From assembly GCA_964501335.1 (NCBI GenBank), contig CAZCTC010000010.1, positions 1-64,000 on the forward strand: DNA of 64,000 nucleotides. Reading direction: 5' to 3'. A program made the position numbers and the translations under genes. Shown piece by piece: positions 507 through 60,698 of the stretch. How positions within the stretch are numbered: position 1 is the stretch's first letter; each line of letters opens with the position of its first letter. Below the pieces are notes generated by a model. It searched no databases and had not been told where the DNA came from. It was given only the letters and a program-made list of their open reading frames with translations. Origin of the DNA: an uncultured Anaerolineales bacterium (GTDB taxonomy: Bacteria > Chloroflexota > Anaerolineae > B4-G1 > SLSP01).

Positions 507-841
507 GGTTCTCCTTATAAAGAGCACACGGGCAATATGTGCGGTCATGACCGGACTTAGTTTGAGTTTAGCACAGCTTGATTTCATGGCAAATCTTGCT
601 GATGACATTGGTGTTATTTTAAGTATCCAATACAATTGATACCAGCCTGCTCATCTTCGGAGCGGGGAGGGATTTTCCCGGAATAATAGCGTTTGCCGTA
701 GAAAATTATGAATGATTGCAATATATAGTGAGGTTAAATCTTCTAAATTAAAAGGAGGTGGGGCTATACGGAAATCTCTGAGGGGTGACCGGGTGACCGG
801 TGCGATGGAGACGATTTTTTGAAGTTAATTCGGAGGAGACA

Positions 842-3800
842 ATGAGAAACTACCCCAGATTTTTTACGGCAATCGCGTTGACGCTGGCTATTTTGCTGGC
901 GGCGGGATTGCTGCCGACTGCGTCCCCGACCCTGGCTCAGGTGATGGCTGGAGACAAGGGCGGGACCCCGATTTTGAACGAAGGATTTGATGCTACAACT
1001 TTCCCCCCGACGAACTGGACGGCTGTGGCTTTGGTGGGAACTACTTATAACTGGGTTCGTTCAACTTCCGGCACCAATCCTTCGGCCACTCCGCATAACG
1101 GGTCGGCCGGGATGGTTTATTACAACAGTTACAGTTCTCCAAGCGGCAATCAGGCGCGGCTGTCTACGCCGGTTTTGAACCTGACTACGCTTACCAATCC
1201 AGTCCTGCAATTCTGGATGTACCACAGCACCATCGGATCAACCTATGCGGATTCCGTGTATGTGGATCTTTCGCTGGATGGCGGGACTTCTTATACGACC
1301 ACATTGGGAAATTTCCTGCGCTATACCAGCACGACTTCGGCCTGGGTGTTGCATACGATCGATCTCTCGGCTTATGCAACTCAGACCAATGTGAAAATCG
1401 GTTTCCGGGTCTACAGCAATGCCGGATATAACACCTTCCTGGATGACGTGGTTGTGAGCAATGCTGATCCGGATTATGCCGTTTCGACCAAGACGGCGGT
1501 ACCGGCCCACCTTTCTTCCGTTTCTTCCGGGCAGCTGATCACCTATACGGTCGTCGTGAGCAATTCTACCGTCACGGGCACGGCGACGTTGCGGGATACC
1601 TTCCCCTACAATGTGAACTATGTTCCCGGGTCGCTGGCGATCAGCAACTTCGGGACTCCGCTGGCCAGCGATGCGGCCGGGGAAAGCATCCCGGGCGGGG
1701 CGCCGGTCGATTTGGGGAATCTCTATGTGACCGATATCGGCCCCTATTTGCATATTGCCTTTACCGTCAATGCCGATATCAGCGGCAGCAACAACTGGGG
1801 CAAATATGCGCTGTATATCGATACCACCAACGACAGCAACGGCGCGACTTCGGATGCCTGGACGCGCAAAGTAACGGTGGCCGATCCTCACAAGCCCGAG
1901 TTCGGGATCTACACATGGGTGGACAATTCTCCTTACAGCCCCAGCGCCACGCAGCTCTGGCAATGGGGCGGCTCCAGCTGGAGCAATATCGGCTCCGTCG
2001 ATGCAGTCAAACTGACCACCGGGCCGGTTTCCACTATTGAGTGGGATGTGGCCAAAGCCAAACTGGGGAACCCTTCCCAGATTTGGGTGGAGGTCTGGTC
2101 TACGGGCGGCGGCACGACCGATAATGCTCAGGATACGATCAACGAGCCGACCGCCGATTGGAATGCTACGGATTGGTCGACCACGGCGACGCTGGCGAAT
2201 TCGACGGCCTATACGCCTTCCACCACCCTGGTGTGGAGCGGTCAGTCGTTGAAGAATCAGCCGATCACAGTGACTTACGCCGTGACGCCGACGATCCTCA
2301 CGGGGTCCGTGACCAATACGGCGACGATCAGCGATCCGACCACGGCGGCTACGGTTACCATGAGCACCCTGCACACGGTGGCGGCGCCGAACTACAATTC
2401 GTCGACGATTTTGCCCCACACCATCCATCCCGCTTCTTTGATGACCTACACCCTGGTTATTTACAATTCCAGCGCCGGGGCCGGGACCTCCACGTTTGTG
2501 ACCAGCTCGATTCCGGCCGGGACGACTTATGCCGGCGGAGCAGCGGTGCAGGGCGGCGGGACGCTGCTGGCGGATTCCGGCGGCATCACCTGGACCGGGC
2601 GTGTGACGGCGACGAGCCGGGTGACGATTACTTATCCGGTCATTCCCCCGGCCAGCGGGCGGTTGACGGTGACGGCGGGGATCAGCGATGTCGCATTGAG
2701 CGCGCCGGTCCTGAAAACTCAGTCCTTCACGCTTCAGCCCCCTTCCGGCGGGCCGGATGCCTTCGGTTATACCTATCAGGACAGCTATGCGTCCGGCGGC
2801 CCGACCTATTCCTGGGTGCCCACGACCACTGCGACCCAGCTGGTTACCCGGGCCGGGACTCTGGATCAAGGCTGGTATACGACGACGCTGCCCTTCAATT
2901 TTGTCTTTTACGGCAATGTCTATACCACGGTTTATCCCACGACCAACGGGTTGTTGACCTTTGGGGCCGGATCTTCGGCTTCTACAAATACCGGGATTCC
3001 TACTACCACAACTCCCAACAATTACATTGGCTGCTTCTGGGACGATCTGACGATCAATATCGTTGCGACCGAAGGGATTTCTTACGAAGTCCAGGGAACG
3101 GCTCCCAACCAGGTGGTGATTTACTCTTATGCGATCGAAAATTACGCTGCCAGCGGCGTGCCGTATGTCTTCCAGACTTTGCTGTTTGAAGGCTCCAATC
3201 AGATTGTGTGCCAGTACAAATCGATGGGGCCCAACGCCTACAGCGACGGTTCTTTTGCCACCGTCGGCATCGAAAATGCGGCGGGGACGACCGGCGTGCA
3301 GTATTCTTACAATCCGGCTTATGGCCCGATCGAGAACAAGCTGGCGATCCGGTTCCTGCCGCCGCAGCGGCCGATGTACGATCTTTCGACTAAGAGCGTT
3401 TTCCCGACCGGGGTCGTGACTCCGGGCGATCAGTTGACCTATACGGTCGTGGTCCGGAATGTCGGGCCGGTGGACGGAACTATGATTTTCAGCGATCCGA
3501 TCCCGGCCGGCGCGACTTTTGTGGAAGCCCTGGGCGATACGTTGCCGACTTTTGACGGCACGGCCCTTAACTGGACCGGGACTGTGACCAAAGGGGAATC
3601 GATTACGTTTACCTATGTGGTGAATGTGATCGGGCATGGTTCAGGCATGATCACCAATACGGCGACGATCAGCGATGCGCAGATTCCGGCGCCGATCACG
3701 CGGGTGACGACAAATGGGGTGAAGATTCCGGCTTACAGCACCTCGACCAAGACCGTGGCCCCGACCGGGACGGTCTTCCCGGGGCAGCTGTTGACCTATA

Positions 3801-6800
3801 CCGTGGTGCTTCTGAACAGCGGCACCTTTACGGGGACGGCGACGCTCAGCGACGTTATTCCTAGCGGGGTGAATTACGTGCCGGGTACGGCGGCGGTGGT
3901 GGGCGGCGGCACGCTGGACGACAGCAACGGCATTGCCTGGTCCGGGCCGGTCTCTGTTTCCGGCCGGGTTACAGTGACCTACAATGCATTGGTGACGGCG
4001 ATTCAGGGCTCGATTACCAACACGGCGGTGATCAGCGATCCGTTGATTTCGGCTTCGGTGTCGAAGTCGGTGAACAACTCAATTGCGGCTCCGATCTACA
4101 GTGGTTCCTCGAAATCCGCTTCGACGGCCGGCGCAGTTAATCCGGGCCAGCAGTTGACCTATACAATTGTGTTGAGCAACAGCGGTCTATTGACCGGTAC
4201 GGCGACCCTGGATGATCCTTTGCCGGCTGAGGTCAGCTATGTGGCCGCCTCGGCGGCGGTGGTGGGCGGTGGGACATTGACCGATACTGCCGGGATTGCC
4301 TGGAGTGGGTCGATCACGCCCGGCGGGCGGATCACGATCACGTACAAGGTGCTGGTGACCGGCATCCGCGGCACCATTACCAATACGGCGACGATCAGCG
4401 ATCCGCTGCTGCTGGCACCCGTCGCGAAATCGGTGGCGAACGCCATTGCTGTTCCGGTGTTGAGCACCTCGGCCAAGACCGTTTCGGTGAATGCGGCTCC
4501 GGTCGGTGGGACTCTCACCTACTGGGTGGCGATCAAGAATACCGGTTCGATGACGGCTCAGACGGCTTCGCTGGTGGATGTTTTGCCGGCGGGTTTGATG
4601 CCCAATACTGGTGCCCTGGCCGCTTCTTCCGGTTCAATCATCGCGGCGGCGGGGGCGGTAAGATGGAACGGGTTGGTGCCGCCGGCGGCGACGGTCTATC
4701 TGACGATTCCGACCACGGTCGGCAGCGATTTGTGCGGTCAGACGATTATGAGCAATACGGCCGTCATTTCCGACCCGGCGTTGCTGGCTTCGGTTCCGGT
4801 AACGGCCGCGATGGTTCAGATCTACGGCGCCAATGTTAAATTCAGTGAAGGTTTTGACGAGGTGACTTTCCCACCGACGGGGTGGACAACGCTGGTCGTT
4901 ACTCCTTCAACGGGCACTGATCCTGCGCCCGCCTGGTCCCGTGTGACCGCTGGAACCAATCCCGTCGCTTCTCTTTATAACGGCGCGGGGATGCTTAGTT
5001 TCAATTCGTATAACGCCAGTGATTATGCCGCGAATCGGTTGTCCAGCCCCAGCTTTAGCCTTAGCGGGGCGGGGGATGCGGCCTTGGTGTTTGCGATGTA
5101 CCACGATTCGGGTTATTCTTCTTCTCCGGATCGGATTCAGGTACAGATTTCTCTGGATGGCGGGACGGTTTACACGAATGTCGGCGCGCCTATCCAGCGC
5201 TATTCGCTGACGACGGGCTGGTTGATTCATATGGTGGATCTTTCGGCCTATAAGGGGCAGTCGGTCCGGCTGGCCTTGTTGGGGATCAGCGATTACGGCA
5301 ATAACATGTTTGTGGATTTGTTGAGTGTCCGGAGCTGCTGCGATCTTCCCGACGGCGGAGACTTTACCTTTGCGCCGCCCTCGCCGTTGACCGGGCAATC
5401 GATCGATTTCACCGGTGCGGTTCTGACGGGCACGGCGCCCTTTACCTACAGCTGGGACTTCGGCGACGGCAGCGCGGTGGCTACCGGCAATCCGGCAACT
5501 CATAGCTATGCGGCGGCGGCCACTTATCCGGTGACCATGACGGTGATCAACCGCTGCGGTTCGACCCAGACTGCCAAATCCGTGACGGTGATGGATGCCC
5601 CGGTGGCACCGGTGATCTCGCTGGTTTCTTCCAGCCCGACGGTGCTCGGCAATCCGACTTACTTCACCGGCACACTGCAAACCGGCTCGACGCCGATCAC
5701 CTATACCTGGGACTTCGGGGACGGGACGGTGTTGGAAGCGGGTCTGACGATGTCGCATACCTATGCGGCGGGTTCTTACACTGCCATCCTGACCGCGTCC
5801 AATGTGGCGGGGACGGTTTCTCAGACCGTTACCGTGTTGGTCGGAACCGGTCCGACGGCAGGCTTCACGCCGACTTCGGTGACGCTCAATGCACCGAATA
5901 CGACGGCGGCCTTTACTTCGACGAGCTCGAATGAACTGGGCTGGCTGTGGAACTTCGGCGACGGCATGACCAGCACGTTGCAGAACCCGACCCATGCTTA
6001 TCCGACGCCGGCTGCTCAGGCCGCGAATTCCTACACGGTTACCCTGACGGTGACCAATACGTACGGGACGGCGCAGGCGACCGGACGGGTAACGATCACC
6101 AACTACTATCCTTCTTTCACGGGCGTCAGTTCGGGGCTTTTCGGCCTGATTCAGCAGGGCTCTCTCTTGACTTACACGATGCGGGTGACCAACAGCGGTA
6201 AGGTGACGGCTGCGCAGGCCAGCCTGGTCGATACCTTCCCCGGTGGGGCGACGGGGCCGGCGATCAATGTCGCGGCCAGCAGCGGCAGCATCGTGGCCAA
6301 CACTGCTTCCGGGTTGACCTGGAACGGCACGTTGGGCGTGAGCGAGAGCGTCACCCTGACCTTTGTCTTGACGGCTACGGGGAGCTGCGGCTCCAGTGTT
6401 CTGTCGAATACGGCGGTGGTTTCAGATCCTTTGACGGTGACCCCCTTGACGTTGACGACGCCGGGGAGCGGAATCTACAGTTACAGCTATCTCAGTCAAG
6501 GGTTTGATGCCACGACATTCCCGCCGACCGGGTGGAGTACCGCGGTACTGACCTTCACGGGCGATACCGCGCCGGCCTGGTCGCAGGCGACTTCCGGGTC
6601 CAATCCGACGGTTTCCCCGCGCACCGGCGCCGGGATGCTCAAGTTTAATTCTTACAGTGCCGATGCGGGGGATGCTGCCCGCCTGGTTTTGCCGGCTCAG
6701 TTGCCGGGGGTCGCGGTCTTCCAGTTTGCGATGTATCACGATACGGGCTACACCACCACCTACGATCTGGTTCTGGTGCAGATTTCGACGGATAACGGCG

Positions 6801-7561
6801 CGACTTACAGCACCCTGGCGAATTTCAGACGTTATGACGGCAGCACGGGATGGAAGTTGCATTCGGTCGATCTGACCGCTTATGCGGGGCAGAGTGTGCG
6901 GCTGGCCCTGTTGGGCGTCAGCGCCTACGGCAACAACATGTTCCTGGACGATCTGTTCGTCGGCGGTTGCCAGAGTTGTGCGGTGCCTTCCGGCGGCAAT
7001 ATCCTGGCTTCGCCGGATCAACCGGTCATCGGTCAGGCGGTTACCTTTACCGGGGTCGTCACGGGTTCCGCTCCTATGAGCTACAGCTGGAATTTTGGCG
7101 ACAACGGCACGGGTACCGGGATCACGGCAACGCATACCTATACGGCGGCCCGGGCTTACACCGTCGTGATGACCGCGACCAATTCCTGTGGTTTTGCGGT
7201 CTATACGAAGACGGTGAATGTGGCCTCTTCCTGTGTCAATGTGAGCGGTGTGGACTTCAACTGGACGCCGGTCACGCCGACAGCCGGGGTGGCTTCCTTC
7301 TTTACGGCGACGTTGGCTGCGGGGACGGCGCCTTTGACCTACACCTGGAATTTCGGCCATGGCGCCGATGTGGTGGATGGAGCGACGATTTCGCACACCT
7401 TCCCGGTGACGGCGGCCAACCAGACTTATACGGTTTCGTTGACGGTTGCCAACGGTTGTTCGGCGGCTCCGGCCGTGGTGAAAGCGGTCACCGTGGCGGG
7501 GGCAACTCCGGTGCTGGATAAGTATGTCTTCCTCCCGATTGTGATCCGCAACAGTCAGTAA
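842..7561 (+). CDS. Giant secreted surface/adhesin-like protein (2,240 aa). Signal peptide, three copies of a choice-of-anchor-J/MAM-like module (FDxxTFPPTGW..MYHD..DLSAYxGQ), about 10 DUF11-type repeats (LTYTxVxxNxG...GTATLxD) and about 8 PKD-like domains (FTGxxxxGxxPxTYxWxFGDG)
   Basis: Long ORF 800..7561. ATG at 842 is preceded by GGAGGAG. N-terminus MRNYPRFFTAIALTLAILLAAG is a signal peptide. Repeat motifs were read directly from the translation. Confidence 0.85.
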   Translation: MRNYPRFFTAIALTLAILLAAGLLPTASPTLAQVMAGDKGGTPILNEGFDATTFPPTNWTAVALVGTTYNWVRSTSGTNPSATPHNGSAGMVYYNSYSSPSGNQARLSTPVLNLTTLTNPVLQFWMYHSTIGSTYADSVYVDLSLDGGTSYTTTLGNFLRYTSTTSAWVLHTIDLSAYATQTNVKIGFRVYSNAGYNTFLDDVVVSNADPDYAVSTKTAVPAHLSSVSSGQLITYTVVVSNSTVTGTATLRDTFPYNVNYVPGSLAISNFGTPLASDAAGESIPGGAPVDLGNLYVTDIGPYLHIAFTVNADISGSNNWGKYALYIDTTNDSNGATSDAWTRKVTVADPHKPEFGIYTWVDNSPYSPSATQLWQWGGSSWSNIGSVDAVKLTTGPVSTIEWDVAKAKLGNPSQIWVEVWSTGGGTTDNAQDTINEPTADWNATDWSTTATLANSTAYTPSTTLVWSGQSLKNQPITVTYAVTPTILTGSVTNTATISDPTTAATVTMSTLHTVAAPNYNSSTILPHTIHPASLMTYTLVIYNSSAGAGTSTFVTSSIPAGTTYAGGAAVQGGGTLLADSGGITWTGRVTATSRVTITYPVIPPASGRLTVTAGISDVALSAPVLKTQSFTLQPPSGGPDAFGYTYQDSYASGGPTYSWVPTTTATQLVTRAGTLDQGWYTTTLPFNFVFYGNVYTTVYPTTNGLLTFGAGSSASTNTGIPTTTTPNNYIGCFWDDLTINIVATEGISYEVQGTAPNQVVIYSYAIENYAASGVPYVFQTLLFEGSNQIVCQYKSMGPNAYSDGSFATVGIENAAGTTGVQYSYNPAYGPIENKLAIRFLPPQRPMYDLSTKSVFPTGVVTPGDQLTYTVVVRNVGPVDGTMIFSDPIPAGATFVEALGDTLPTFDGTALNWTGTVTKGESITFTYVVNVIGHGSGMITNTATISDAQIPAPITRVTTNGVKIPAYSTSTKTVAPTGTVFPGQLLTYTVVLLNSGTFTGTATLSDVIPSGVNYVPGTAAVVGGGTLDDSNGIAWSGPVSVSGRVTVTYNALVTAIQGSITNTAVISDPLISASVSKSVNNSIAAPIYSGSSKSASTAGAVNPGQQLTYTIVLSNSGLLTGTATLDDPLPAEVSYVAASAAVVGGGTLTDTAGIAWSGSITPGGRITITYKVLVTGIRGTITNTATISDPLLLAPVAKSVANAIAVPVLSTSAKTVSVNAAPVGGTLTYWVAIKNTGSMTAQTASLVDVLPAGLMPNTGALAASSGSIIAAAGAVRWNGLVPPAATVYLTIPTTVGSDLCGQTIMSNTAVISDPALLASVPVTAAMVQIYGANVKFSEGFDEVTFPPTGWTTLVVTPSTGTDPAPAWSRVTAGTNPVASLYNGAGMLSFNSYNASDYAANRLSSPSFSLSGAGDAALVFAMYHDSGYSSSPDRIQVQISLDGGTVYTNVGAPIQRYSLTTGWLIHMVDLSAYKGQSVRLALLGISDYGNNMFVDLLSVRSCCDLPDGGDFTFAPPSPLTGQSIDFTGAVLTGTAPFTYSWDFGDGSAVATGNPATHSYAAAATYPVTMTVINRCGSTQTAKSVTVMDAPVAPVISLVSSSPTVLGNPTYFTGTLQTGSTPITYTWDFGDGTVLEAGLTMSHTYAAGSYTAILTASNVAGTVSQTVTVLVGTGPTAGFTPTSVTLNAPNTTAAFTSTSSNELGWLWNFGDGMTSTLQNPTHAYPTPAAQAANSYTVTLTVTNTYGTAQATGRVTITNYYPSFTGVSSGLFGLIQQGSLLTYTMRVTNSGKVTAAQASLVDTFPGGATGPAINVAASSGSIVANTASGLTWNGTLGVSESVTLTFVLTATGSCGSSVLSNTAVVSDPLTVTPLTLTTPGSGIYSYSYLSQGFDATTFPPTGWSTAVLTFTGDTAPAWSQATSGSNPTVSPRTGAGMLKFNSYSADAGDAARLVLPAQLPGVAVFQFAMYHDTGYTTTYDLVLVQISTDNGATYSTLANFRRYDGSTGWKLHSVDLTAYAGQSVRLALLGVSAYGNNMFLDDLFVGGCQSCAVPSGGNILASPDQPVIGQAVTFTGVVTGSAPMSYSWNFGDNGTGTGITATHTYTAARAYTVVMTATNSCGFAVYTKTVNVASSCVNVSGVDFNWTPVTPTAGVASFFTATLAAGTAPLTYTWNFGHGADVVDGATISHTFPVTAANQTYTVSLTVANGCSAAPAVVKAVTVAGATPVLDKYVFLPIVIRNSQ

Positions 7562-7589
7562 TCGCGGAGCGGTCAGTTTTCGGGGATCA

Positions 7590-7626
7590 AAAGCAGATAG
7601 GGCTCGCCCTATCTGCTTTTTCATTT
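7590..7626 (+). terminator. Intrinsic terminator after the giant gene
   Basis: agcagataggg-ctcg-ccctatctgct hairpin followed by TTTTT, 30 nt after the stop codon. Confidence 0.6.
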
Positions 7627-7670
7627 TTCGGGGTGCCGTCCCCGGCCTGGCGTTCTGTCCTGAAAATAGG
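7617..7670. repeat. Intergenic repeat family B, copy 1 (ttttcatNNttcggggtgccgNccccggc..ttctgtcctgaaaatag)
   Basis: About 50-nt near-identical second copy at 7960..8012. Contains the small hairpin cgggg-tgccg-ccccg. Confidence 0.6.
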
Positions 7671-7700
7671 TTTTTATAGCATGGCCCCAGCCTTGTAACG

Positions 7701-7802
7701 TCCCGCAAATGATCTTTTCCCGGTCAGATACGACGCGCAGGATGGGCAGAGAGAGTTTTTTGTTTATGTTTTCGCGGGCTTCAGAAAGCCCGCGAAAACA
7801 TA
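7701..7802. repeat. Composite intergenic palindromic element (arm tcccgcaaa..gacgcgc..gggagagagtttttt plus GC hairpin core 7766..7801)
   Basis: Arm and hairpin (ttttcgcgggc-ttcagaaa-gcccgcgaaaa) recur at 12768, 14024, 58142 and 58282. Inverted arms recur at 11900 and 19870. Confidence 0.7.
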
Positions 7803-7959
7803 GTCCTTTTTCAGAGCCGCCCCGGCAACGCACTCTGAAGTCCCTCCCCCTCACTCCGATGCCGGCGGCGCATCTTCGCCACGAATCTCCTGGAAGCGCG
7901 TTGCGCCTTCACAACCGCATGGGGGAGGGATTAGGGAGAGGGCCAGCGCGCGAAAACCA

Positions 7960-8012
7960 TTTTCATCCTTCGGGGTGCCGCCCCCGGCATGACCTTCTGT
8001 CCTGAAAATAGC
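7960..8012. repeat. Intergenic repeat family B, copy 2
   Basis: Near-identical to 7617..7670. Confidence 0.6.
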
Positions 8013-8214
8013 CCACGCCGTGCCCCCCACGGGCGACCATAAAGGTCGCCCCTACCCGAACCCCGCCAATGTAGGGACAGGTGGGCGCCCTCTCGTCTGA
8101 AAACAGGCTTTTTTCTCAGACTAATCGCATCGGTCGGTAAAAACAAGAGGCTTTCTGACTAATTCGCGGTGCATTGCATTTTTTGAGGAGCTGAAGTATA
8201 ATAAACAAACGTAA

Positions 8215-8262
8215 TTCTAACCTTTTTCAGGTAATTAGAAAGAAGTTTTCTAACTTTTCAGG
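8215..8262 (+). promoter_or_regulatory. Two direct repeats (ttctaac[c]tttt[t]cagg) between a TATAAT-like box (8197..8202) and the terpene cyclase start
   Basis: Repeats at 8215..8231 and 8247..8262, about 16 nt apart. Possible operator or 5'-UTR element. Confidence 0.25.
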
Positions 8263-8271
8263 AAGGTAAAG

Positions 8272-9825
8272 ATGGAAACCACGGAAGCCGCAGAATTCTT
8301 ATTCGATGAACTTTCACAGCTGCTCAAGGCTTGTGGGGCAACGGGGGGATTGGTAAGTCCTTCCGTATATGACACGGCTCAAGTGTTGCGCCTGGCTCCC
8401 CCGCCTGATCCGGAACCGGCTCTGCGCTGGTTACTCGATCAACAGCAACCCGATGGGGGGTGGGGCAGTTCATTGATGTCGAGTGCGCGGGACTTGTCGA
8501 CCCTGGCCGCGATCCTGGCCTTGAAGAAGTATCCTCAATTGAAAGGCGTTGAGGAAGCGGTGGCGGGCGGTTTACATTATTTAAATGCTCACGCGACGGT
8601 GTGGGCTTTTGAGCCGGTCGATCACTGGATGGTGGGGGTCGAGTTGATCCTGCCGCATTTGCTGCAGGAGGCTCGAAACTGGGGGTGGGAGCTTCCTTAC
8701 CATCTTTATGAGCCGTTGATGCAGGTGGGAGAGCGGCGCCGGCAACGTCTGGCGAAGATGAAACCCCGGGCCGGCACGCCGTTTGTCCATTCCTGGGAAG
8801 CCTGGGGCGAAATTGCCGATCCGGCTTTGCTGGACGGCACCGGGGGGGTGGGGCATAGTCCGGCCGCTACGGCGGGGTGGTTGGGGGCTGCCGGCGAGAC
8901 TCCCGAGCTGGAGGCTTCGCGGCAGGCCGCCCGGAGCTATCTGGCCCAGGCGGCCGAATCGACCGGATTGGGAATCTCCGGGGTCGTGCCGACGGTCTGG
9001 CCGATCGTCCATTACGAGCGGGCTTTCATGCTTTATTTTCTGGTCGTGACCGGGTTGTGGGACCATCCCCGTTTAAAAGCGGCGGTGGAACCCCAGCTGG
9101 ATCTATTGGCCGCAGCGTTGCGGGAAGATGGTTTGGGGTTTAGTGATTATTTTATTCCTGATGGCGATGATTCTACGGTAGCGGTGGCGGTTTTAAAGGC
9201 GACCGGTCGAGCGGTCTCGATTGAGGCTATTCGCCAGTTTATGCAGGAAGGCTTTTTTTCCACCTATGCGAATGAATTGAACCCTTCCCTTTCGGCTTCG
9301 GCTCATGGGGTGCATGCCCTGGGAATTTTGGGGGAACCGGAATACAATTTTTATCTGGATTATCTCTTGCAGAGACAGCTGCCTGAAGGTTATTGGAAGG
9401 GCGATAAGTGGAATATCTCCTGGCTGTATGTGACGGAGCAGGTGGTTCTGGCGCTGGCGGAGAACTTACCGGAAGCGGATGCGGAGCGCGTTTTGCAGGC
9501 TGTCCTGGCGGCTCAGAAAGCCGACGGCAGCTGGGGGACGATCGAAGAGACGGCCTATGCCTTCACGGTGATGCGAACCTTACGGAATATTTCCGGTCCC
9601 TTCTATTTTGACGTGATCAATGCTTTGATGCGAAGCGGGCATTGGTTGGTGAGAAAATTCAAGTTTCGGCAATTTGCGCCGGTTAATTTGTGGGTGGGTA
9701 AGGAGCTTTATTGTCCTTATCGGGTGGTGCGGACGATGGAATTATCGGCTTTGCTGGCCGGAATGTTGGAATATGCGGATGTGGGAATTGAAGTGCCGAT
9801 TTTTTCATCGGTTATGATTCATTGA
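8272..9825 (+). CDS. Class II terpene cyclase-like protein (squalene/diterpene cyclase beta-gamma fold)
   Basis: QW-type motif QQQPDGGWG, DxDD motif in FIPDGDDSTVAV, and a SPAATA-like motif (HSPAATAGW) typical of class II di/triterpene cyclases. Its 517 aa length fits bacterial type-B diterpene cyclases. RBS AGGAAGG precedes the ATG. Confidence 0.55.
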   Translation: METTEAAEFLFDELSQLLKACGATGGLVSPSVYDTAQVLRLAPPPDPEPALRWLLDQQQPDGGWGSSLMSSARDLSTLAAILALKKYPQLKGVEEAVAGGLHYLNAHATVWAFEPVDHWMVGVELILPHLLQEARNWGWELPYHLYEPLMQVGERRRQRLAKMKPRAGTPFVHSWEAWGEIADPALLDGTGGVGHSPAATAGWLGAAGETPELEASRQAARSYLAQAAESTGLGISGVVPTVWPIVHYERAFMLYFLVVTGLWDHPRLKAAVEPQLDLLAAALREDGLGFSDYFIPDGDDSTVAVAVLKATGRAVSIEAIRQFMQEGFFSTYANELNPSLSASAHGVHALGILGEPEYNFYLDYLLQRQLPEGYWKGDKWNISWLYVTEQVVLALAENLPEADAERVLQAVLAAQKADGSWGTIEETAYAFTVMRTLRNISGPFYFDVINALMRSGHWLVRKFKFRQFAPVNLWVGKELYCPYRVVRTMELSALLAGMLEYADVGIEVPIFSSVMIH

Positions 9826-9835
9826 CAACTGGAAG

Positions 9836-9889
9836 TTAAAAAGGATCGCGCGCGGCCCCTCGGAGAGGCCGCGCGCGATCCTTTTTTGT
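9836..9889. terminator. Bidirectional terminator between convergent genes
   Basis: AAAAA-ggatcgcgcgcggcc-loop-ggccgcgcgcgatcc-TTTTTT. Confidence 0.65.
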
Positions 9890-9897
9890 TTGATGTG

Positions 9898-11598
9898 TTA
9901 TCCCGGGAAGACTTTGTGATAGATCTGCGGGGCTTTGCGTTCGACCCGTTGTTCGGCGGCCAGGGCCAGCCGTAAGAGCAACGGTTCTTCCCAGGCCCGG
10001 CCGATGGCCTGCATTCCGACGGGCAATCCTGCCGGCGTATATCCGGCGGGGAACGAAATGGCCGGCAAGCCGGTCAGGTTCCCGGGAGTGGCAAAGCGCA
10101 TAATTTCCACCAGCGTGGAGATATCCGATTCCCCGTTTTTAAGGGCATCGGTCGGGATGGCGGGGGCGGCAATGCCGGTGGCCGGGGTGAGGATCAGATC
10201 GACTTTTTGCAGGGCCCGGTCGAAGCTGGCCATTAACTGGGTGCGGACCCGTTGGGCCTTGACGTAATCCATGGTCGTGAAGGCCCGGGCCAGGGCCAGG
10301 CTGAGGCGTACTTCCAGGCTGTGTTCGTGATGATGGGCGGGATAGGTGGCGCTGAGGGCCTGGGCCATTTCGCCGGCGATGGTGACCGTGTGGGCGATGC
10401 GGGCAGCTTCCAGATCGGGCAGCGTGATTTCCTGCAGCTGCCCTCCCAGCAGCTCGAATTGCTGGAGCAAGGTTTCACAGACGGCGACAACTTCCGGGGC
10501 GGCATGGCGGAACCAGGGCCAGTAAATGCCCAGGGTAAGGCCGTGGAGATCGGACCGGTTCCAACCTTCGAGGAGCGGGGTGGGTTGGCGCAGGGTGTTG
10601 GCGTCCAGGAGGTCGGGGCCGGCCATCAGGGCATATCCCAGCGCGGCATCCGTCACGGAGGCGGCGAGGGGGCCGATGTGGGCGACACTCCAGCAGAGCG
10701 GTGCGGCTCCGTATTCGCTCACCCGGCCGTAAGTCGGTTTCAGGCCGACGACGCCGCAGAAGGAAGCCGGGATGCGAATGGAACCGCCGCCGTCGGCTCC
10801 GATGGCCAGGGGGCAGAAACCGGCCGCAACGGCCACCGCAGAGCCGCTGGAACTGCCGCCGGTGTAATGTCCCGGGGCGTAGGGATTGCGGGGCGTGCCA
10901 TGGATCGGGTTGGAGCCGGTCACGCCGATGCCGATTTCGTGCATGTTGGTTTTGCCGATCAGCAGGGCGCCGGCCGCCCGCAGCCGGGCGACGACGGTGG
11001 CGTCATCGGTGGCGGGGGCATTGCCGAGGAAGGCCGTTCCAACCGTGGTGGGGTAGGGACGTTGGTTGATTTCGTCTTTGACGGCTACCGGGACTCCGTC
11101 GAGGATACTGAGTGGGCGGCCGTTTTTCCAGCGGGCGGCGGATTCGTGAGCCTGGCGCAGGAGGTCGGTTGAGTCACTGGCGATGACGGCCCGCAGCGGC
11201 GGCTGATCACGGTGGGTGGCATTGCTGGCTTCAATGGCCTCCTGGACCCGGGCGGCGACATCTTCGGGCGTAAAGCGGCCCTCTCGATAGCCCTGGGCAT
11301 ATTCGTGGACCGTGGGGAAGTGAAAGCCGGGGGCTGCGGGACCGGGAGCCGGCCATTGAGTTTGGGGAACGGTGGTTTCCGGGTCTGCCGGGGCGGAGTT
11401 GAGAAAATGGATTGGCTGAGGGGTAGGGCCTTCATTAATAATTTGGTCGCGCAGCCAGAGAACGCCGGCGTTTTTCAGCATATTTTGGGTCAGCAGTCCG
11501 CCCAGGGGACTTTCGAGGAGTCCGACAATCAGTCGTAAACTGGGACCGGCCAGACGGGGAAATTTAACAGAATGAAGGTCATAGCTTTCTTGTGCCAT
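9898..11598 (-). CDS. Amidase-signature family amidase (GatA-like)
   Basis: Amidase signature GGSSSGSAVAVAAG..IGADGGGSIRIPASFCGVVGLKPTYGRVS, with an N-terminal extension of about 120 aa. Confidence 0.8.
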   Translation of the reverse strand: MAQESYDLHSVKFPRLAGPSLRLIVGLLESPLGGLLTQNMLKNAGVLWLRDQIINEGPTPQPIHFLNSAPADPETTVPQTQWPAPGPAAPGFHFPTVHEYAQGYREGRFTPEDVAARVQEAIEASNATHRDQPPLRAVIASDSTDLLRQAHESAARWKNGRPLSILDGVPVAVKDEINQRPYPTTVGTAFLGNAPATDDATVVARLRAAGALLIGKTNMHEIGIGVTGSNPIHGTPRNPYAPGHYTGGSSSGSAVAVAAGFCPLAIGADGGGSIRIPASFCGVVGLKPTYGRVSEYGAAPLCWSVAHIGPLAASVTDAALGYALMAGPDLLDANTLRQPTPLLEGWNRSDLHGLTLGIYWPWFRHAAPEVVAVCETLLQQFELLGGQLQEITLPDLEAARIAHTVTIAGEMAQALSATYPAHHHEHSLEVRLSLALARAFTTMDYVKAQRVRTQLMASFDRALQKVDLILTPATGIAAPAIPTDALKNGESDISTLVEIMRFATPGNLTGLPAISFPAGYTPAGLPVGMQAIGRAWEEPLLLRLALAAEQRVERKAPQIYHKVFPG

Positions 11599-11660
11599 CG
11601 TTTTTCTTTCGGTTTATCTGGGGCTGGATAAAAAAAAACGGCCCGGGGAGGCCATTTATG

Positions 11661-11737
11661 TGGTGGGTCGTACAGGATTCGAACCTGTGGCCCTGGGCTT
11701 AAAAGGCCCCTGCTCTGCCGGACTGAGCTAACGACCC
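11661..11737 (-). tRNA. tRNA-Lys (anticodon UUU)
   Basis: Reverse complement reads GGGTCGTTAGCTCAGTCCGGCAGAGCAGGGGCCTTTTAAGCCCAGGGCCACAGGTTCGAATCCTGTACGACCCACCA. It is near-identical in architecture to E. coli tRNA-Lys. Anticodon loop CUUUUAA, T-loop GGTTCGAATCC, CCA encoded. Confidence 0.9.
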
Positions 11738-11788
11738 ACGCGGCTCAAAGTATAACACGCCTCTCTGAGTTGTCAACTTGGGGGCCGG

Positions 11789-11958
11789 CGTCCTGCAAAA
11801 GGAGTTCTTTGACCTGTGCGGTTGGCCCGGAATGGTGGGAGAAACTGAGCCCGTGTTTTTGCGCGCATAAGAATGCGCGCAAAAACACAAAAAAAACACT
11901 TTCTGTCTGCTTCGCACCGCGCGGCGTTTTTTACCGGGAAAGTATCTGTTGCGGGACG
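11789..11958. repeat. Composite palindromic element with both arms (left arm 11789..11852, GC hairpin 11853..11888 gtgtttttgcgcgcat-aagaa-tgcgcgcaaaaacac, inverted right arm 11900..11958)
   Basis: The right arm caccgcgcggcg..accgggaaagt..gcgggacg is the reverse complement of the arm consensus cgtcccgcaaa..cccggt..gacgcgc. Confidence 0.65.
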
Positions 11959-12040
11959 AAAAAACTGTGCTGGATTGTTCCTGCCGGCAATCGGAATACA
12001 ATAGAAAAAAATCGGTTTTCTTTTTGTTGAAGGAGGGTGT

Positions 12041-12715
12041 ATGTGCGGACGATTTACGCTGGCGTTGGGGCGGGCCGGTTTGATGGAAGCCTTTCCGGGT
12101 TTCGATGTCCCGGAGGATTTGCCGACGCGCTATAACATTGCACCATCCCAGGCGGTTCCCGTCATTGCCAACCAGGGGGCTCAGCGGGTGGAACTTTTTC
12201 GTTGGGGCTTGATTCCATCCTGGGCCAAAGATCCGGCCATCGGCAACAAAATGATCAATGCCCGGGCGGAAACTCTGACCGAAAAACCGGCTTTCCGGGC
12301 GGCTTATCGGCGGCGGCGCTGTCTGATTCTGGCGGACGGCTTTTATGAATGGCAGGCGCAGGCGGGCAGCCGGACCAAGACGCCGTTCTATTTCAAGCTG
12401 GCCTCGGGAAAGGCTTTTGGCTTTGCCGGGCTGTGGGAGTTCTGGCAGTCGGCTGCCGGGGATGAGATCTGTTCCTGCACCATTATCACGACCGACGCCA
12501 ATGCACTGGTGGCTTCGGTTCACGATCGGATGCCGGTCATTTTGCCGCCGGAAGCCCATGCGGCCTGGCTCGATCCGGCGGAGATCGATCCGGCGGTGTT
12601 GAACTCATGGTTGAAGCCCTATCCAGCCGAGGCGATGACGACTTATACTGTTTCCGCGGCAGTCAACAGCCCGCAAAACGATTCGCCGGTCTGCATTGTT
12701 CCGACGGCGGCGTAA
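12041..12715 (+). CDS. SOS-response-associated peptidase (SRAP/YedK/HMCES) abasic-site processing protein
   Basis: N-terminus MCGRF with catalytic Cys2. Conserved YNIAPSQ..FRWGLIPSWAKD. RBS GAAGGAGGG. Confidence 0.9.
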   Translation: MCGRFTLALGRAGLMEAFPGFDVPEDLPTRYNIAPSQAVPVIANQGAQRVELFRWGLIPSWAKDPAIGNKMINARAETLTEKPAFRAAYRRRRCLILADGFYEWQAQAGSRTKTPFYFKLASGKAFGFAGLWEFWQSAAGDEICSCTIITTDANALVASVHDRMPVILPPEAHAAWLDPAEIDPAVLNSWLKPYPAEAMTTYTVSAAVNSPQNDSPVCIVPTAA

Positions 12716-12767
12716 GGGGCTTTGGGCATATCAGACAATTTAAGGCGCGGCGCTGGCAGCTTTAGCA

Positions 12768-12866
12768 CCCCGCACAAGGTGCTTCTCCCGTAAAATACAC
12801 CGCGCTGGATGGGGGAGAGAGTTTTTATTCATTTTTTCGCGCGCCGTCTGCGGCGCGCGAAAAAAT
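12768..12866. repeat. Composite palindromic element (arm plus hairpin core 12832..12865 ttttttcgcgcgcc-gtctgc-ggcgcgcgaaaaaa)
   Basis: Shares ccccgcacaagg..ggatgggggagagagttttt with the other copies. Confidence 0.65.
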
Positions 12867-12923
12867 AAAAATAAATCAAGAAACTCAATTTGTCATTTTG
12901 TGGACTGCTGGTATATTTTTCGT

Positions 12924-14006
12924 ATGCTAAGTCGAAGACATTATCGCTGGTTGGTATTGGGATTGTTAGGGTTAGCGGCCTGCACTCAGACTACTGCGAC
13001 GGGAACACCTCCTCCTGAAACCACTGCATGGACTTCGACACCGGAAATGGGCGCGACGTTTACTCCTACTTTGCTGCCGACGGCCATACCTCAAATTTCT
13101 CCCACGGCTATCTCTTCTCCTGTCCCGGTCGATACTCCGATGCCGGTCGTGTATGTCGTCCAGGCCGGGGATACGCTCTTAGGCGTGGCGTTGGATCAGG
13201 GCGTACCGATGGCGGCTATCCAGCTGGCCAATGAGATGGGGTCTTCAACCGTGGTCCAGGTGGGACAGGAACTGGTGATCCCTCCCACTACCGGCTGGGA
13301 AGGGGCTACGGCTTTTTGGGCCCTCCATCGAGTGGAGGCGGGTGAGACGCTGTACGGGATTGCCGAAGCCTATGGGATTGATCCGGCCCGTTTGCAGTCG
13401 GTCAATGGGCTGGGGGATGCCGATCTGGTGACCGTGGGACAGGATTTGATCCTGCCGATGGCGGCTCCGGGTTCGACTCCTGAATTGACTGAGGTTCCGG
13501 TTGTGGTTGAAGCAACGATGACGCCGGTTCCCCTTCTCACTGAACTGCCTTCTCCGACTTCGGTTCCTGTACCGGTACCTGCGACGGCGGTCGCTCCGCC
13601 CTCGGATGTGATCGATTGGCCGCGGGAGACGGTGCGATTGATCAATGAAGTGCGGGCCAGTTACAATTTGCCTCCGCTGGTTTATAACGAGAAGCTGGCG
13701 TTGGCGGCGCAGGGGCAGGCCAATGATTGCAGCCAGCGGGGCTGGTGCAGCCATACCGGATCGGATGGCTCGGATATCAAAGCGCGGATTTTGCGGGTGG
13801 GATACGATCCTTCCAACTGGGCGGAGTGTTGGGCGCAGCGGCAGAGTCCGCAGGATGCCGTCAATGTCTGGATGAATGAGACACCTCCTGATGATCCACA
13901 CCGCCGGACTCTGCTCAGTACGTGGTTGACTGAGATCGGGATCGGGGTGGCGCCGACGACCTGGGGCTATTATTTTCTGGCCGATTTTGGTAAGCCGCGT
14001 TCCTGA
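12924..14006 (+). CDS. Lipoprotein with two LysM domains and a C-terminal CAP/SCP/PR-1 (YkwD-like) domain
   Basis: Signal/lipobox MLSRRHYRWLVLGLLGLAAC. LysM domains YVVQAGDTLLGVA..VGQELVIP and HRVEAGETLYGIA..VGQDLILP. CAP motifs HTGSDGSD..NVWMNE..HRRTLLS. The ORF could begin at GTG 12900 instead. Confidence 0.75.
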   Translation: MLSRRHYRWLVLGLLGLAACTQTTATGTPPPETTAWTSTPEMGATFTPTLLPTAIPQISPTAISSPVPVDTPMPVVYVVQAGDTLLGVALDQGVPMAAIQLANEMGSSTVVQVGQELVIPPTTGWEGATAFWALHRVEAGETLYGIAEAYGIDPARLQSVNGLGDADLVTVGQDLILPMAAPGSTPELTEVPVVVEATMTPVPLLTELPSPTSVPVPVPATAVAPPSDVIDWPRETVRLINEVRASYNLPPLVYNEKLALAAQGQANDCSQRGWCSHTGSDGSDIKARILRVGYDPSNWAECWAQRQSPQDAVNVWMNETPPDDPHRRTLLSTWLTEIGIGVAPTTWGYYFLADFGKPRS

Positions 14007-14023
14007 CGGGGGAGGTTTTTACG

Positions 14024-14130
14024 TCCCGCAAGGGGTTTTATTCGGTTTGAAGCGACGCGCTGTGCGAAGCAGGGGGAGAGAGTTTTTTGTTAGTGTTTTT
14101 GCGCGCATTCTTATGCGCGCAAAAACACGG
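14024..14130. repeat. Composite palindromic element (arm plus hairpin core 14093..14128, followed by a T-run)
   Basis: tcccgcaagg..gaagcgacgcgc..agggggagagagttttttgttagtgtttttgcgcgcat-tctta-tgcgcgcaaaaacac then ggttttttct. May also terminate the upstream + strand gene. Confidence 0.65.
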
Positions 14131-14269
14131 TTTTTTCTGTTTTCCAGGGGTGATTACACAGGTTGAGAGTTTTTCTAAGAGGGCTTGCAGGATTGCCTGC
14201 TCGTGGTAGACTCAGGGGCAGCTCACTACACTTCATTGACTCTAAATTCTATCAAAAGGCAGGAGAATC

Positions 14270-14743: not shown

Positions 14744-14776
14744 TTCTTAAGCATTTTTTCGCGCGCCTACAGGGCG
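14744..14776. repeat. GC-hairpin repeat (ttttttcgcgcgcc-tacag-ggcgcgcgaaaaaa)
   Basis: Same gcgcgc-stem family as 12832 and 16260. Confidence 0.65.
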
Positions 14777-14812
14777 CGCGAAAAAATTAAAAATTACTGA
14801 ATAAGGAGCTCC

Positions 14813-16189: not shown

Positions 16190-16259
16190 ACAGCGGCAAG
16201 TAGACAGTAGACAGCAAGGCTTTTTCTACAGGGCAGTGCTGTCAAGCAAGGTAAGGTTT

Positions 16260-16294
16260 AAATTTTCGCGCGCCTTCTCAGGCGCGCGAAAATT
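16260..16294. repeat. GC-hairpin repeat (aaattttcgcgcgcc-ttctca-ggcgcgcgaaaattt) between convergent genes
   Basis: Perfect inverted repeat. Likely also a bidirectional terminator. Confidence 0.65.
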
Positions 16295-16304
16295 TAAATA
16301 GAAT

Positions 16305-17156: not shown

Positions 17157-17238
17157 GGTTGACTCCGTTCAGGTGTTTTGTAAAGGTTTTGGGGATACCT
17201 GTTAGCGACGCACAGAAGATTCAGAGAGTTCCTTATTT

Positions 17239-17276
17239 ATATTTTTCGCCCGCCTTGGCAGGCGGGCGAAAAATAT
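17239..17276. repeat. GC-hairpin repeat (atatttttcgcccgcc-ttggc-aggcgggcgaaaaatat)
   Basis: Same cgcccgcc-stem subfamily as 60643. Preceded by the arm fragment cagagagttccttatttat. Confidence 0.65.
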
Positions 17277-17320
17277 AGCCTTTGGTTAATCGCGTGGGGA
17301 AAGTCTGTCCCCTGGTTGGA

Positions 17321-19612: not shown

Positions 19613-19814
19613 TTTGCCTCCGTGGCAAGGTCCATCCAGGAGTGTTGATTGAATGGACCCAAACGGGCCCAACTTTACCACAAAAGGGGAGAATGGCAAG
19701 GCGGCAGGAGAAGGAAACGTGAAAGAAGATAAACCTAAGTTTTGGCAGCGTCTGCGGCGCACGAAAACAGGGATAAAAAAACCGACCTGTGCGGTCAGGC
19801 TGAGAAAAAAGCCC

Positions 19815-19935
19815 ATTTTTTTCGGCGGCTTTCTGAAGCCGCCGAAAAAAATGAATAAAATAATTTCTCTTTGCCTGCTTCGCACCGCGCGTTGTATCTT
19901 AACAGGAAAGTGCCGGGTGCGGGATGTCAGAGTGC
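19815..19935. repeat. Composite palindromic element (hairpin 19815..19850 tttttttcggcggc-tttctgaa-gccgccgaaaaaaa plus inverted arm 19870..19935)
   Basis: The loop tttctgaa is the reverse complement of ttcagaaa seen at 7766 and 58216. The arm ctgcttcgcaccgcgcg..ggaaagt..gcgggatg matches 11900..11958. Confidence 0.65.
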
Positions 19936-50034: not shown

Positions 50035-50082
50035 TTGTAACTTGGGCGGTGAGCCCAGAAAACAAGGCAAAGAAAAACTCAT

Positions 50083-50113
50083 TTTTCGGCGGCTTTCCGA
50101 AGCCGCCGAAAAA
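50083..50113. repeat. GC-hairpin repeat (tttttcggcggc-tttccgaa-gccgccgaaaaa)
   Basis: Same subfamily as 19815 and the truncated copy at the window start (about 40..60). Confidence 0.65.
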
Positions 50114-50364
50114 TGAAAGACAGCACTCTCTTCCCATCCAGCGTGTCGTTTTCTACCAAACAAAGGCTTTTTGCGGGACGCAAGAAACCGAAGATGTGCA
50201 GGCCGAGGGGCGTAAAAGGTACTTGGGGCGGTTTGCCTCTCTTGCAGCTTGGTGTATACTCTACCTTGTTCGCTTACCTGCTGATCGGTAATTTCCCAAG
50301 CTTTTTCATTTGGTGCTGGTTTGGTTTCCCATTAGTCAGAAAAACAAGACCAGGAAAGTACTTT

Positions 50365-51690: not shown

Positions 51691-51734
51691 CCTCTTTGCC
51701 TCTTTTTGTCTATGTTAAATCCCGGAGGTGAAAT

Positions 51735-53282: not shown

Positions 53283-53310
53283 TTAACCATAAAGAACTTA
53301 AGGAGAACTT

Positions 53311-54396: not shown

Positions 54397-54479
54397 GGAT
54401 GCGGTGGGCGTGAGCCGCTGCAAAGATGAACGGTACCTATCTGGCTTGCCGATGACACCCATAACAAGGAGGCTGTACG

Positions 54480-56861: not shown

Positions 56862-56874
56862 GAGGCCGGGAACG

Positions 56875-58070: not shown

Positions 58071-58128
58071 AGAGCATTTTGTAAGGGCGCCGGCCATAGG
58101 CCGGCGCCCTTATAAAATGCTCTTTTTA
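58071..58128 (+). terminator. Intrinsic terminator after the vWA gene
   Basis: agagcattttgtaagggcgccggcc-atag-gccggcgcccttataaaatgctct followed by TTTTT. Confidence 0.7.
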
Positions 58129-58141
58129 CTCGGGTGATTAA

Positions 58142-58251
58142 CATTTTAGCATCCCGCAAAAGGCTTTCGTTCGGCTTGAAGCGACGCGCGGGAGGGGGAG
58201 AGAGTTTTTTTGTTTATGTTTTCGCGGGCTTCAGAAAGCCCGCGAAAACAT
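58142..58251. repeat. Composite palindromic element, tandem copy 1 (hairpin core 58216..58251)
   Basis: cattttagcatcccgcaaaaggctttcgttcggcttgaagcgacgcgcgggagggggagagagtttttttgtttatgttttcgcgggc-ttcagaaa-gcccgcgaaaacat. Confidence 0.7.
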
Positions 58252-58281
58252 GGGCTTTTTTTCTGTGCCCCTGATGCCGGG

Positions 58282-58390
58282 CATTTTAGCATTCCGCAAA
58301 AGGCTTTCGTTCGGCTTGAAGCGACGCGCGGGATGGGGAGAGAGTTTTTTTGTTTATGTTTTTGCGGGCTTCAGAAAGCCCGCGAAAACA
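58282..58390. repeat. Composite palindromic element, tandem copy 2 (hairpin core 58356..58390)
   Basis: Near-identical to 58142..58251 (about 130-bp tandem duplication). Confidence 0.7.
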
Positions 58391-58580
58391 GGGGTTTTTC
58401 CTTTACTTGTTTTCCGGGCTCACCGCACAGGTGGGAATTTATTCAAAATGTTTTTTATTCCGGCGATTTTTGACTTCGGCCCAAGGTGGGCTATACTGGG
58501 GGCATATTTATAACTTTGCGACTTATGGCGCTTGTGTGCGTATTTCTTATCTTGTAAGGAATGTAAGGAGGAGACGGATC

Positions 58581-60591: not shown

Positions 60592-60642
60592 GTCAGGAAA
60601 AACTTACCAGCCTATTGCGGGCAACCCTTAAATCTATACTTA

Positions 60643-60675
60643 TATTTTCGCCCGCCTCAACAGGCGGGCGAAAAT
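60643..60675. repeat. GC-hairpin repeat (attttcgcccgcc-tcaaca-ggcgggcgaaaat)
   Basis: Same subfamily as 17239. Confidence 0.65.
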
Positions 60676-60698
60676 GTAAGAATACAAGCGAGACGAAT

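Follow-up and report, generated by a model that had tools for sequence, protein, structure and literature searches.

In Streptococcus pneumoniae, BOX elements are modular repeats (boxA-boxB-boxC), and their A and C modules are partly complementary. Repetitive extragenic palindromic (REP) sequences and bacterial interspersed mosaic elements (BIMEs) are extragenic, often clustered and located downstream of genes, and they have been suggested to act in termination or to stabilise mRNA (PMC3733652). Tagged REPs are imperfect palindromes of 20-40 bp with relatively short stems and an unpaired GTAG or CGTC at the stem end (PMC3733652). Here we analyse an intergenic repeat in a stretch of 64,000 nt from an uncultured Anaerolineales bacterium (positions 1 to 64,000 of contig CAZCTC010000010.1, assembly GCA_964501335.1; hereafter the window). 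The host belongs to the Chloroflexota, whose interspersed repeats have hardly been described so far. The repeat is a genuine, abundant, lineage-specific interspersed family with three modules, namely a conserved arm (A), a palindrome (B) and a small hairpin (C). It is a fresh case of an ordinary kind of bacterial interspersed repeat and, judged by analogy, would come closest in its way of working to modular BOX elements or to mosaics of the BIME type. No earlier report of this family was found in the literature searched.

A preliminary description of the window had listed eight copies of a conserved arm of about 65 nt preceding hairpins. A profile trained on these eight copies was queried against the window with nhmmer, and all eight were recovered at E-values of 1e-15 to 3.5e-20, together with an independent match to a ninth arm absent from that list, at 50186..50122 on the minus strand (E 9.2e-14). 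Furthermore, a 42-position degenerate pattern derived from conserved arm columns gave seven matches in the window and none in 100 shuffles. The conserved arm is thus confirmed, and the consensus first proposed for it proved essentially correct. We number the copies 1 to 9 by position. The plus-strand arms announced at 7701, 12768, 14024, 58142 and 58282 are profile-significant and span 7693-7763, 12760-12829, 14016-14090, 58144-58214 and 58284-58354 (copies 1, 3, 4, 8 and 9). Equally sound are the arm-only copy at 24299 (copy 6; arm 24291-24363, E 6.8e-18, no palindrome found) and the inverted arm at 19870..19935 (copy 5; profile-significant, arm 19932-19857 on the minus strand). Copy 2 has its arm at 11964-11889 on the minus strand, and copy 7 carries the ninth arm. 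The two arms near 58142 and 58282 do form a tandem pair; its period is 140 bp rather than the approximately 130 bp first given.

The preliminary description had held that an absence of further copies in the rest of the genome would count against the family; 18 more arms were found on other contigs. The total is 27 arm copies in about 105 kb of one population genome. The unbiased arm density is that of the window, 9 per 64 kb, and the overall density is about one copy per 4-7 kb; by extrapolation only, the window density would correspond to some hundreds of copies per genome. The median pairwise identity of the copies is 70%. Dispersed copies are 65-85% alike, the best dispersed pair reaching 85%, and identities above 90% are limited to adjacent tandem pairs (94% and 91%). 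No recent dispersal is therefore indicated, and the visible amplification is local tandem duplication.

Further copies came from a scan with the arm pattern over one genome per species. Among the matches listed were contigs that a single co-assembly had placed in three metagenome-assembled genomes (MAGs) with the labels Anaerolineaceae, Geobacter and Nitrospiraceae: L002, L003 and L006 in the 'Anaerolineaceae' MAG, L004 (CAZHVY010000024.1) in the 'Geobacter sp.' MAG, and L007 (CAZPGZ010000078.1) in the 'Nitrospiraceae' MAG. L004 is 100% identical to part of the JGI contig Ga0248168_1000181 (L019), the named homologues of its methyltransferase are all from Anaerolineae, and short Logan contigs, all from one run (SRR6476076), give 100% matches to the window as well as to L019. 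These loci are therefore parts of the same population genome and not of other phyla. Spread across phyla was accordingly discarded, given that the Geobacter and Nitrospiraceae labels sit on contigs of the same Anaerolineae population; one repeat-rich population distributed over three MAG labels looks like mis-binning. The M20 dipeptidase of the window has named relatives only in Anaerolineae or Chloroflexota, the closest at 76% identity. A pattern match in Gemmatimonadota was rejected as chance in a contig of 71% GC without a profile match, as were three matches in JGI metagenomes, in DNA of 71-73% GC and likewise without a profile match. A search of 52 kb belonging to four other Anaerolineae gave no member of the family, and neither did plasmid records, phage records or IMG/VR. 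Orthologous empty sites were sought in relatives, but the M20 homologues there (74-76% identity) lack synteny and are free of copies.

Extended alignments revealed the order of the unit: arm A of about 70 nt, palindrome B, GGC with a run of 5-7 T, and optionally the small hairpin C. The arm contains two GC boxes, CGTCCCGCA and ACGACGCGCnG, which lie 23-24 nt apart on either side of a T/A-rich spacer of variable sequence. Past the boxes come GATGG or TGCGAAGCAG, then the purine tract GGGAGAGAG and a T-run, so that two arm subtypes are distinguished, ...GCGCNG-GATGG-GGAGAGAG and ...GCGCNG-TGCGAAGCAG-GGAGAGAG. Palindrome B has the form TTTT-GC core-loop-GC core-AAAA, and its stem (13-18 bp) is perfect in 23 of the 27 copies. 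At least 10 copies continue past the palindrome with module C, TTTCCGGGCTnACCGCACAGGTC, in unchanged orientation; the core hairpin of this module is GACC-GCACA-GGTC. By eye, module C resembles a truncated arm (TCCCGC...TTTCCGG...CGC.C.GG.), a candidate that we rejected, as nhmmer gave only local matches at E of about 0.17. The modules are combined as A+B, A+B+C, B+C, B alone and A alone; arm-less B-C units are present in L002 and, as a tandem array with an 89-nt period, in L019. Copies occur in both orientations, and the clusters are tandem arrays of one orientation (58144/58284 in the window; 5962/6143, 11138/11307 and 12050/12249 in L019; 3533/3800 in L006).

The arm is conserved as primary sequence. 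Eleven of its 71 columns are invariant over the 27 copies, compared with about 0.1 expected under equal rates, and the box-to-box spacer is free of indels in 26 of 27. Applied to 22 copies, RNAalifold predicted the B hairpin only and no secondary structure in the arm. Two candidate arm structures were examined and rejected. An 8-bp helix between CGTCCCGC and GCnGGATG pairs in 142 of 176 cells (81%), which equals the shuffle mean of 142, and an inner arm hairpin is good in only 5-6 copies, the arm interior having a mean z of -0.7, no better than shuffles in most. A long-range pairing between arm GCGCnG and module C TTCnGGGC, proposed by RNAalifold on 10 full units, shows compensating changes in some units and conflicting ones in others. 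Given the lack of covariation in the arm, its invariant columns and the fixed box spacing, the arm is conserved in sequence rather than in structure.

Palindrome B behaves differently from the arm in this respect. In total, 97.7% of its cells pair, a value that none of 500 shuffles reached, and slid controls gave 34-55% pairing. Nine of 18 pairs have changes on both sides, amounting to 55 cells, and again none of 500 shuffles reached these values. The core of 15 pairs holds one G.U and one mismatch; arm positions diverge by about 20%. The pairing of B is thus actively maintained, nearly all of it Watson-Crick. An RNA helix under selection is usually tolerant of G.U pairs. Upkeep restricted to Watson-Crick pairs is what would be expected of a palindrome kept at the DNA level or of templated palindrome correction. 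The three outermost pairs (GTTTA with TGGGC), most of them G.U, are confined to the arm strand, and their apparent pairing does not exceed what would be expected from column composition.

In 19 of 23 copies, B is succeeded within 14 nt by a T-run on the arm strand; on the other strand this is found in none of 23. The layout of an intrinsic terminator, a GC-rich stem-loop followed by a U-tract on the transcribed strand, is therefore present in those 19 copies and in that direction. A terminator scan flagged copies 1, 4 and 5, and the sense RNA folds with z of -3.9 to -4.7. The strand-restricted T-run, the scan and the stable sense fold together give the unit the shape of a one-way intrinsic terminator.

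Among described systems, BOX would be the closest match for the way of working. Both are modular, non-coding, intergenic elements of about 100-300 bp from a single lineage, with three kinds of unit in variable combinations and numbers and with strong predicted hairpins. They share no sequence kinship, however; A and C are not complementary here, and the centre is a perfect palindrome followed by a T-run. The REPs and BIMEs of Proteobacteria resemble the family as short extragenic palindromes of high copy number, often clustered or combined with other motifs and located downstream of genes. In contrast to them, no GTAG or CGTC tag abuts the stem foot, the stem being flanked by GTTTA (5') and GGGC (3'), and the CGTC of the arm is separated from it by about 70 nt; the stems are perfect and of greater length, the clusters run head-to-tail without a predominance of head-to-head or tail-to-tail dimers, and a conserved 70-nt arm stands on one side. 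Correia/NEMIS elements of Neisseria and other bacterial MITEs (miniature inverted-repeat transposable elements; ERIC, RUP) are likewise about 100-160 bp long and sit in mosaic intergenic regions alongside other repeats; they number hundreds, as extrapolated for the family, and can carry terminator or promoter activity, which for the present units is predicted from sequence. Unlike the family, they have clear terminal inverted repeats (TIRs) and a target duplication (TA for Correia). As in ordinary intrinsic terminators, the arm strand carries a GC-rich hairpin that G.U pairs lengthen to about 20 bp, with 6-7 T directly behind it. The hairpin is nevertheless repeated and perfectly palindromic, with a T-tract also on its 5' side, lone copies lack the downstream T-run, and at four loci the unit points in the direction in which it would not terminate; the terminator role is a predicted one. 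An integron attC site was rejected, since the palindrome, with GTTTT 5' and AAAAC 3', is the reverse of R''(RYYYAAC)...R'(GTTRRRY), and the window holds no integrase. The defining features of each class having been tested and found lacking, the repeat is not a MITE, a tagged REP, an attC site or a member of an Rfam family.

We propose a putative model for the origin and upkeep of the units, to which we give about an even chance of being right: maintenance at the DNA level, an arm recognised by a protein, ancient dispersal in trans followed by tandem amplification, and one-way terminator-like hairpins as a by-product or co-opted feature. In this model, the arm would be a bipartite, sequence-specific protein-recognition site and not a folded RNA. 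The units would have been dispersed long ago by a putative enzyme acting in trans, absent from the sequence examined. The asymmetry, the lack of TIRs and target-site duplications, and the reliance on a hairpin suggest that a hairpin-recognising route of the HUH type, like that of REP-associated tyrosine transposases (RAYTs), may fit better than a DDE route. Their present-day multiplication would be chiefly through local tandem duplication. Transcribed from the arm side, palindrome B, its stem lengthened by G.U pairs and followed by the T-run, would form a one-way intrinsic terminator, and copies might serve as incidental or co-opted transcription stops between genes.

Several observations weigh against this model. 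Mobility is something that we infer, since neither a mobilising enzyme nor an empty site or a polymorphic insertion was observed. The sequence examined amounts to approximately 105 kb, all of which except the window had been picked for carrying the element. The strong position-specific conservation over old copies fits selection at the host level at least equally well. The palindromes are perfect here, as opposed to the imperfect ones that RAYTs reportedly need (PMC3733652). Only units between two co-directional genes are informative about transcription, and on gene maps checked with Pfam seven such loci are co-oriented with their neighbours and four anti-oriented, a split that is not significant and speaks neither for nor against an obligatory terminator role. 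A bias of 8 to 1 in the window alone had fallen to 7 to 4 once other loci were added, and was abandoned. A replication bias was rejected as well, orientations being mixed relative to the sign of the GC skew.

The main rival is that the units are host-selected cassettes, kept copy by copy as cis elements: directional insulators or back-up terminators, maybe stabilisers of RNA 3' ends, with the arm bound by a host protein. We regard it as possible, though on the whole unlikely. It would account for the invariant boxes at fixed spacing in copies otherwise about 70% alike, for the maintenance of both palindrome and T-run, and for the lack of recent dispersed copies. The typical site, past the terminator that belongs to one gene and short of the promoter that comes next, also suits it. 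All nine window copies are intergenic, and several lie past the strong terminator of the upstream gene and before the next promoter; for example, the stop codon at 58059 is followed by a hairpin at 58076-58118, two units and a promoter, and copies 2 and 4 are placed alike. The same placement cuts the other way, in that many units behind an existing strong terminator would not be needed. Moreover, four of the 11 informative loci are antisense to both neighbours, a direction without a T-run, versions with the arm only or the palindrome only exist, and the arm-binding protein is only presumed. A further-reaching form, in which a host protein binds the arm as a bipartite site and several hundred A-B-C units act genome-wide as directional insulators or RNA 3'-end signals in this Anaerolineae lineage only, appears to us more doubtful still.

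That the units are of the REP/BIME type, mobilised by a RAYT or an IS200/IS605-type HUH transposase that acts on the single-stranded palindrome with the arm as its guide or cleavage context, is improbable. The asymmetric, hairpin-centred architecture without TIRs or target-site duplications speaks for it, as do the Watson-Crick-only upkeep expected of a DNA hairpin and the extragenic, clustered copies. Against these stand the missing GTAG or CGTC beside the stem, the perfect stems of 13-18 bp where tagged REPs have shorter, imperfect ones (PMC3733652), and the head-to-tail instead of head-to-head clusters. Furthermore, no RAYT or other Y1 transposase was found in the approximately 105 kb of genome examined, and unit orientation has no consistent bias relative to the GC-skew sign.

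The preliminary description had favoured a MITE-like element of about 170 bp with TIRs, from two inverted arms at 11789..11958 around a hairpin. Of these, the right arm is that of copy 2, as given above. The left one, at 11788-11809, covers only 22 profile positions at E 0.77 and overlaps module C; it is module C of the minus-strand copy 2 plus a 13-nt resemblance. The proposed element therefore fails, and no significant inverted arm was found by profile search beside any copy. Nor could module C serve as a right-hand TIR, since only three of 27 copies have an inverted module-C core (12 nt) within 80 nt upstream, and since C forms a mini-palindrome, which makes its core unsurprising in either orientation. 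Target-site duplications, sought at all boundary offsets in 21 copies, were absent apart from T-runs; the only flank matches are TTT/TTTT between the 5' T-run of the arm and the T-run after the palindrome, in 10-11 of 21 copies, with none at module-C ends, and as the element boundaries are not sharp, a very short duplication could escape the scan. No transposase domain was detected in the window, L002-L007 or L019 (about 105 kb of genome). A classical MITE, that is, a deletion derivative of an insertion sequence with TIRs, moved by a DDE transposase that makes target-site duplications, is thus very improbable. What the family does share with MITEs is that it is small, non-coding, multi-copy, dispersed and lineage-specific (27 copies of about 120-160 bp, all intergenic), and three copies combine the inverted C core upstream with a direct one downstream. 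With dispersed copies only 65-85% alike, however, near-identical ones are missing.

The other alternative first raised was a family of small structured-RNA genes. Folding of the sense strand indeed gives a stem-loop on the 5' side and a terminator hairpin that carries a U-tract, the T-run is on one strand only, and tandem arrays are known for some small-RNA genes. A sigma-70-like promoter within -80..+25 was found for one of 27 copies, which equals the background rate (2.3% per such interval), although the host does use TTGACA/TATACT promoters, such as TTGACA-16-TATACT ahead of tRNA-Lys; sequence upstream of the units is not conserved in the extended alignment. Rfam gave no match at the gathering threshold, and relaxed E-values yielded only spurious matches to miRNA hairpins. 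As the arm lacks both covariation and its own promoter, as Rfam gave no match and as the implied hundreds of copies far exceed known small-RNA families, a set of trans-acting RNA genes made of arm, G-rich single strand and terminator is scarcely credible.

Individual copies in the window differ in composition and setting. Copy 1 (7693..7812, plus strand; E 3.5e-20) is an A+B unit with a perfect 17-bp palindrome at 7765-7802 and a T-run to 7812, flagged by the terminator scan on the plus strand. It lies about 130 nt past the stop of a 2253-aa open reading frame (ORF), also past that gene's own terminator (7589-7620). Copy 2 (11802..11964, minus strand) is A+B+C, with its palindrome at 11888-11853 and module C at 11840-11808 (E 4.5e-06 for C), upstream of the tRNA-Lys promoter (11776-11749). 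Copy 3 (12760..12869, plus strand), an A+B unit with a palindrome at 12828-12869 and no downstream T-run, sits between SRAP and LysM/CAP genes. Copy 4 (14016..14170, plus strand) begins 10 nt past the LysM/CAP stop and combines an arm of the TGCGAAGCAG subtype with a palindrome at 14093-14128, a T-run and a degenerate, C-like module at about 14140-14165. Copy 5 (19782..19932, minus strand; A+B+C) follows the stop of a DegT-family aminotransferase gene by about 20 nt; its palindrome at 19853-19814 and T-run precede module C at 19811-19782, and the terminator scan finds a 20-pair terminator-like site on the minus strand.

Copy 6 (24291..24363, plus strand), the arm without a palindrome, lies in the divergent region upstream of a vault-protein gene. 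Copy 7 (50036..50186, minus strand; A+B+C) has its arm at 50186-50122, its palindrome at 50116-50079 and module C at 50068-50036, antisense to both flanking plus-strand genes; an ORF that seems to overlap it most likely has its true start at the ATG at 50366. In the tandem pair, copy 8 (58144..58262, plus strand) is A+B with a palindrome at 58216-58251 and a T-run, and copy 9 (58284..58436, plus strand) is A+B+C with a palindrome at 58357-58390 (one mismatch) and module C at 58404-58436 (E 1.4e-08). The two are 91% identical, and a TTGACT-17-TATACT promoter comes after copy 9. Directly upstream of copy 8, an arm-less hairpin with a T-run and a C-like tail (CGGGTGATTAACA) at 58076..58135 (plus strand) is tentatively assigned to the family, its tail having been likened by eye to that of copy 4.

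B-type palindromes also stand alone. One, at 14753..14787 between FKBP and M20 genes (ATTTTTTCGCGCGC...GCGCGCGAAAAAAT), has neither arm nor T-run, and further ones are at 16257-16298, 17238-17277 and 60639-60680. All are perfect and intergenic, and on both strands have a T-tract (TTTT) 5' and an A-tract (AAAA) 3' of the GC core without a downstream T-run, a layout that is the reverse of a bidirectional terminator.

The intergenic regions that bear units are mosaics with several other repeat modules. Copy 1 is flanked by repeat family D15 (TTTTCATCCTTCGGGGTGCCGCCCCCGGCATGGCCTTCTGTCCTGAAAATAG) at 7618-7669 and 7960-8011, an 88% identical direct repeat 342 bp apart; D15 recurs beside arms in L006 at 3133-3184, 3293-3348 and 3455-3510, and the window segment 7812-7957 recurs there at about 3930-4071. 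In L004, a module GTTATCCRACGGGGCAATCAA with a GC-rich hairpin forms a direct repeat of about 75 nt around one A-B-C unit (3325-3398 and 3633-3705), which is either left over from a tandem duplication or a further component of the intergenic mosaic.

Among the neighbouring genes, the ORF before copy 1 (800-7561, plus strand) has internal repeats of about 363 bp (families D5, D6 and D8) and probably encodes a large repetitive surface protein. The gene downstream of copy 6 (24487-27087, plus strand) encodes an 866-aa protein with Pfam Vault repeats and an MVP shoulder domain, that is, a bacterial homologue of the major vault protein. Such bacterial homologues have already been reported (bioRxiv 10.1101/872010). 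Right after its stop, an 8-bp tandem repeat (GACTGGAA/GACCGGAA, about eight units) occupies 27093-27158. From about 28000 to 50000, GC content falls from about 0.58-0.62 to 0.49-0.53 across a polysaccharide-biosynthesis cluster comprising a flippase, a Wzy-like protein, acetyltransferases, GT2 and GT4 glycosyltransferases, GH44, WecG-STAS and a sugar transferase, after which comes a set of SpoIIE-phosphatase, anti-sigma-type kinase and receiver-domain genes. No repeat copies lie within this low-GC cluster, and copy 7 is at its right edge. A conserved five-gene cluster at 50366-58059 (plus strand) encodes a SWIM zinc-finger protein, DUF5691, a MoxR-type AAA_5 ATPase, DUF5682 and a VWA CoxE-like protein. 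The GC skew is uniformly and strongly positive over the window (0.02-0.28 per 2 kb, with a cumulative rise), and because it stays positive across the minus-strand gene block at 16-24 kb, it follows replication rather than transcription.

The units have a practical effect, in that they break short-read assemblies. Logan contigs start or stop inside units or the 8-bp tandem repeat (19826, 14101 and 27134 in the window; 11185 in L019), and the repeats therefore fragment such assemblies. The repeat could in turn mark contigs for re-binning of this genome, one population under three MAG labels. A perfect palindrome maintained by compensation, a one-sided two-box arm and copies about 70% alike make the family a clean setting in which to ask whether selfish spread or host selection keeps such repeats. 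If the arm is indeed the site of a host protein, the units would be a domesticated repeat with a dedicated reader protein, and not junk or selfish DNA.

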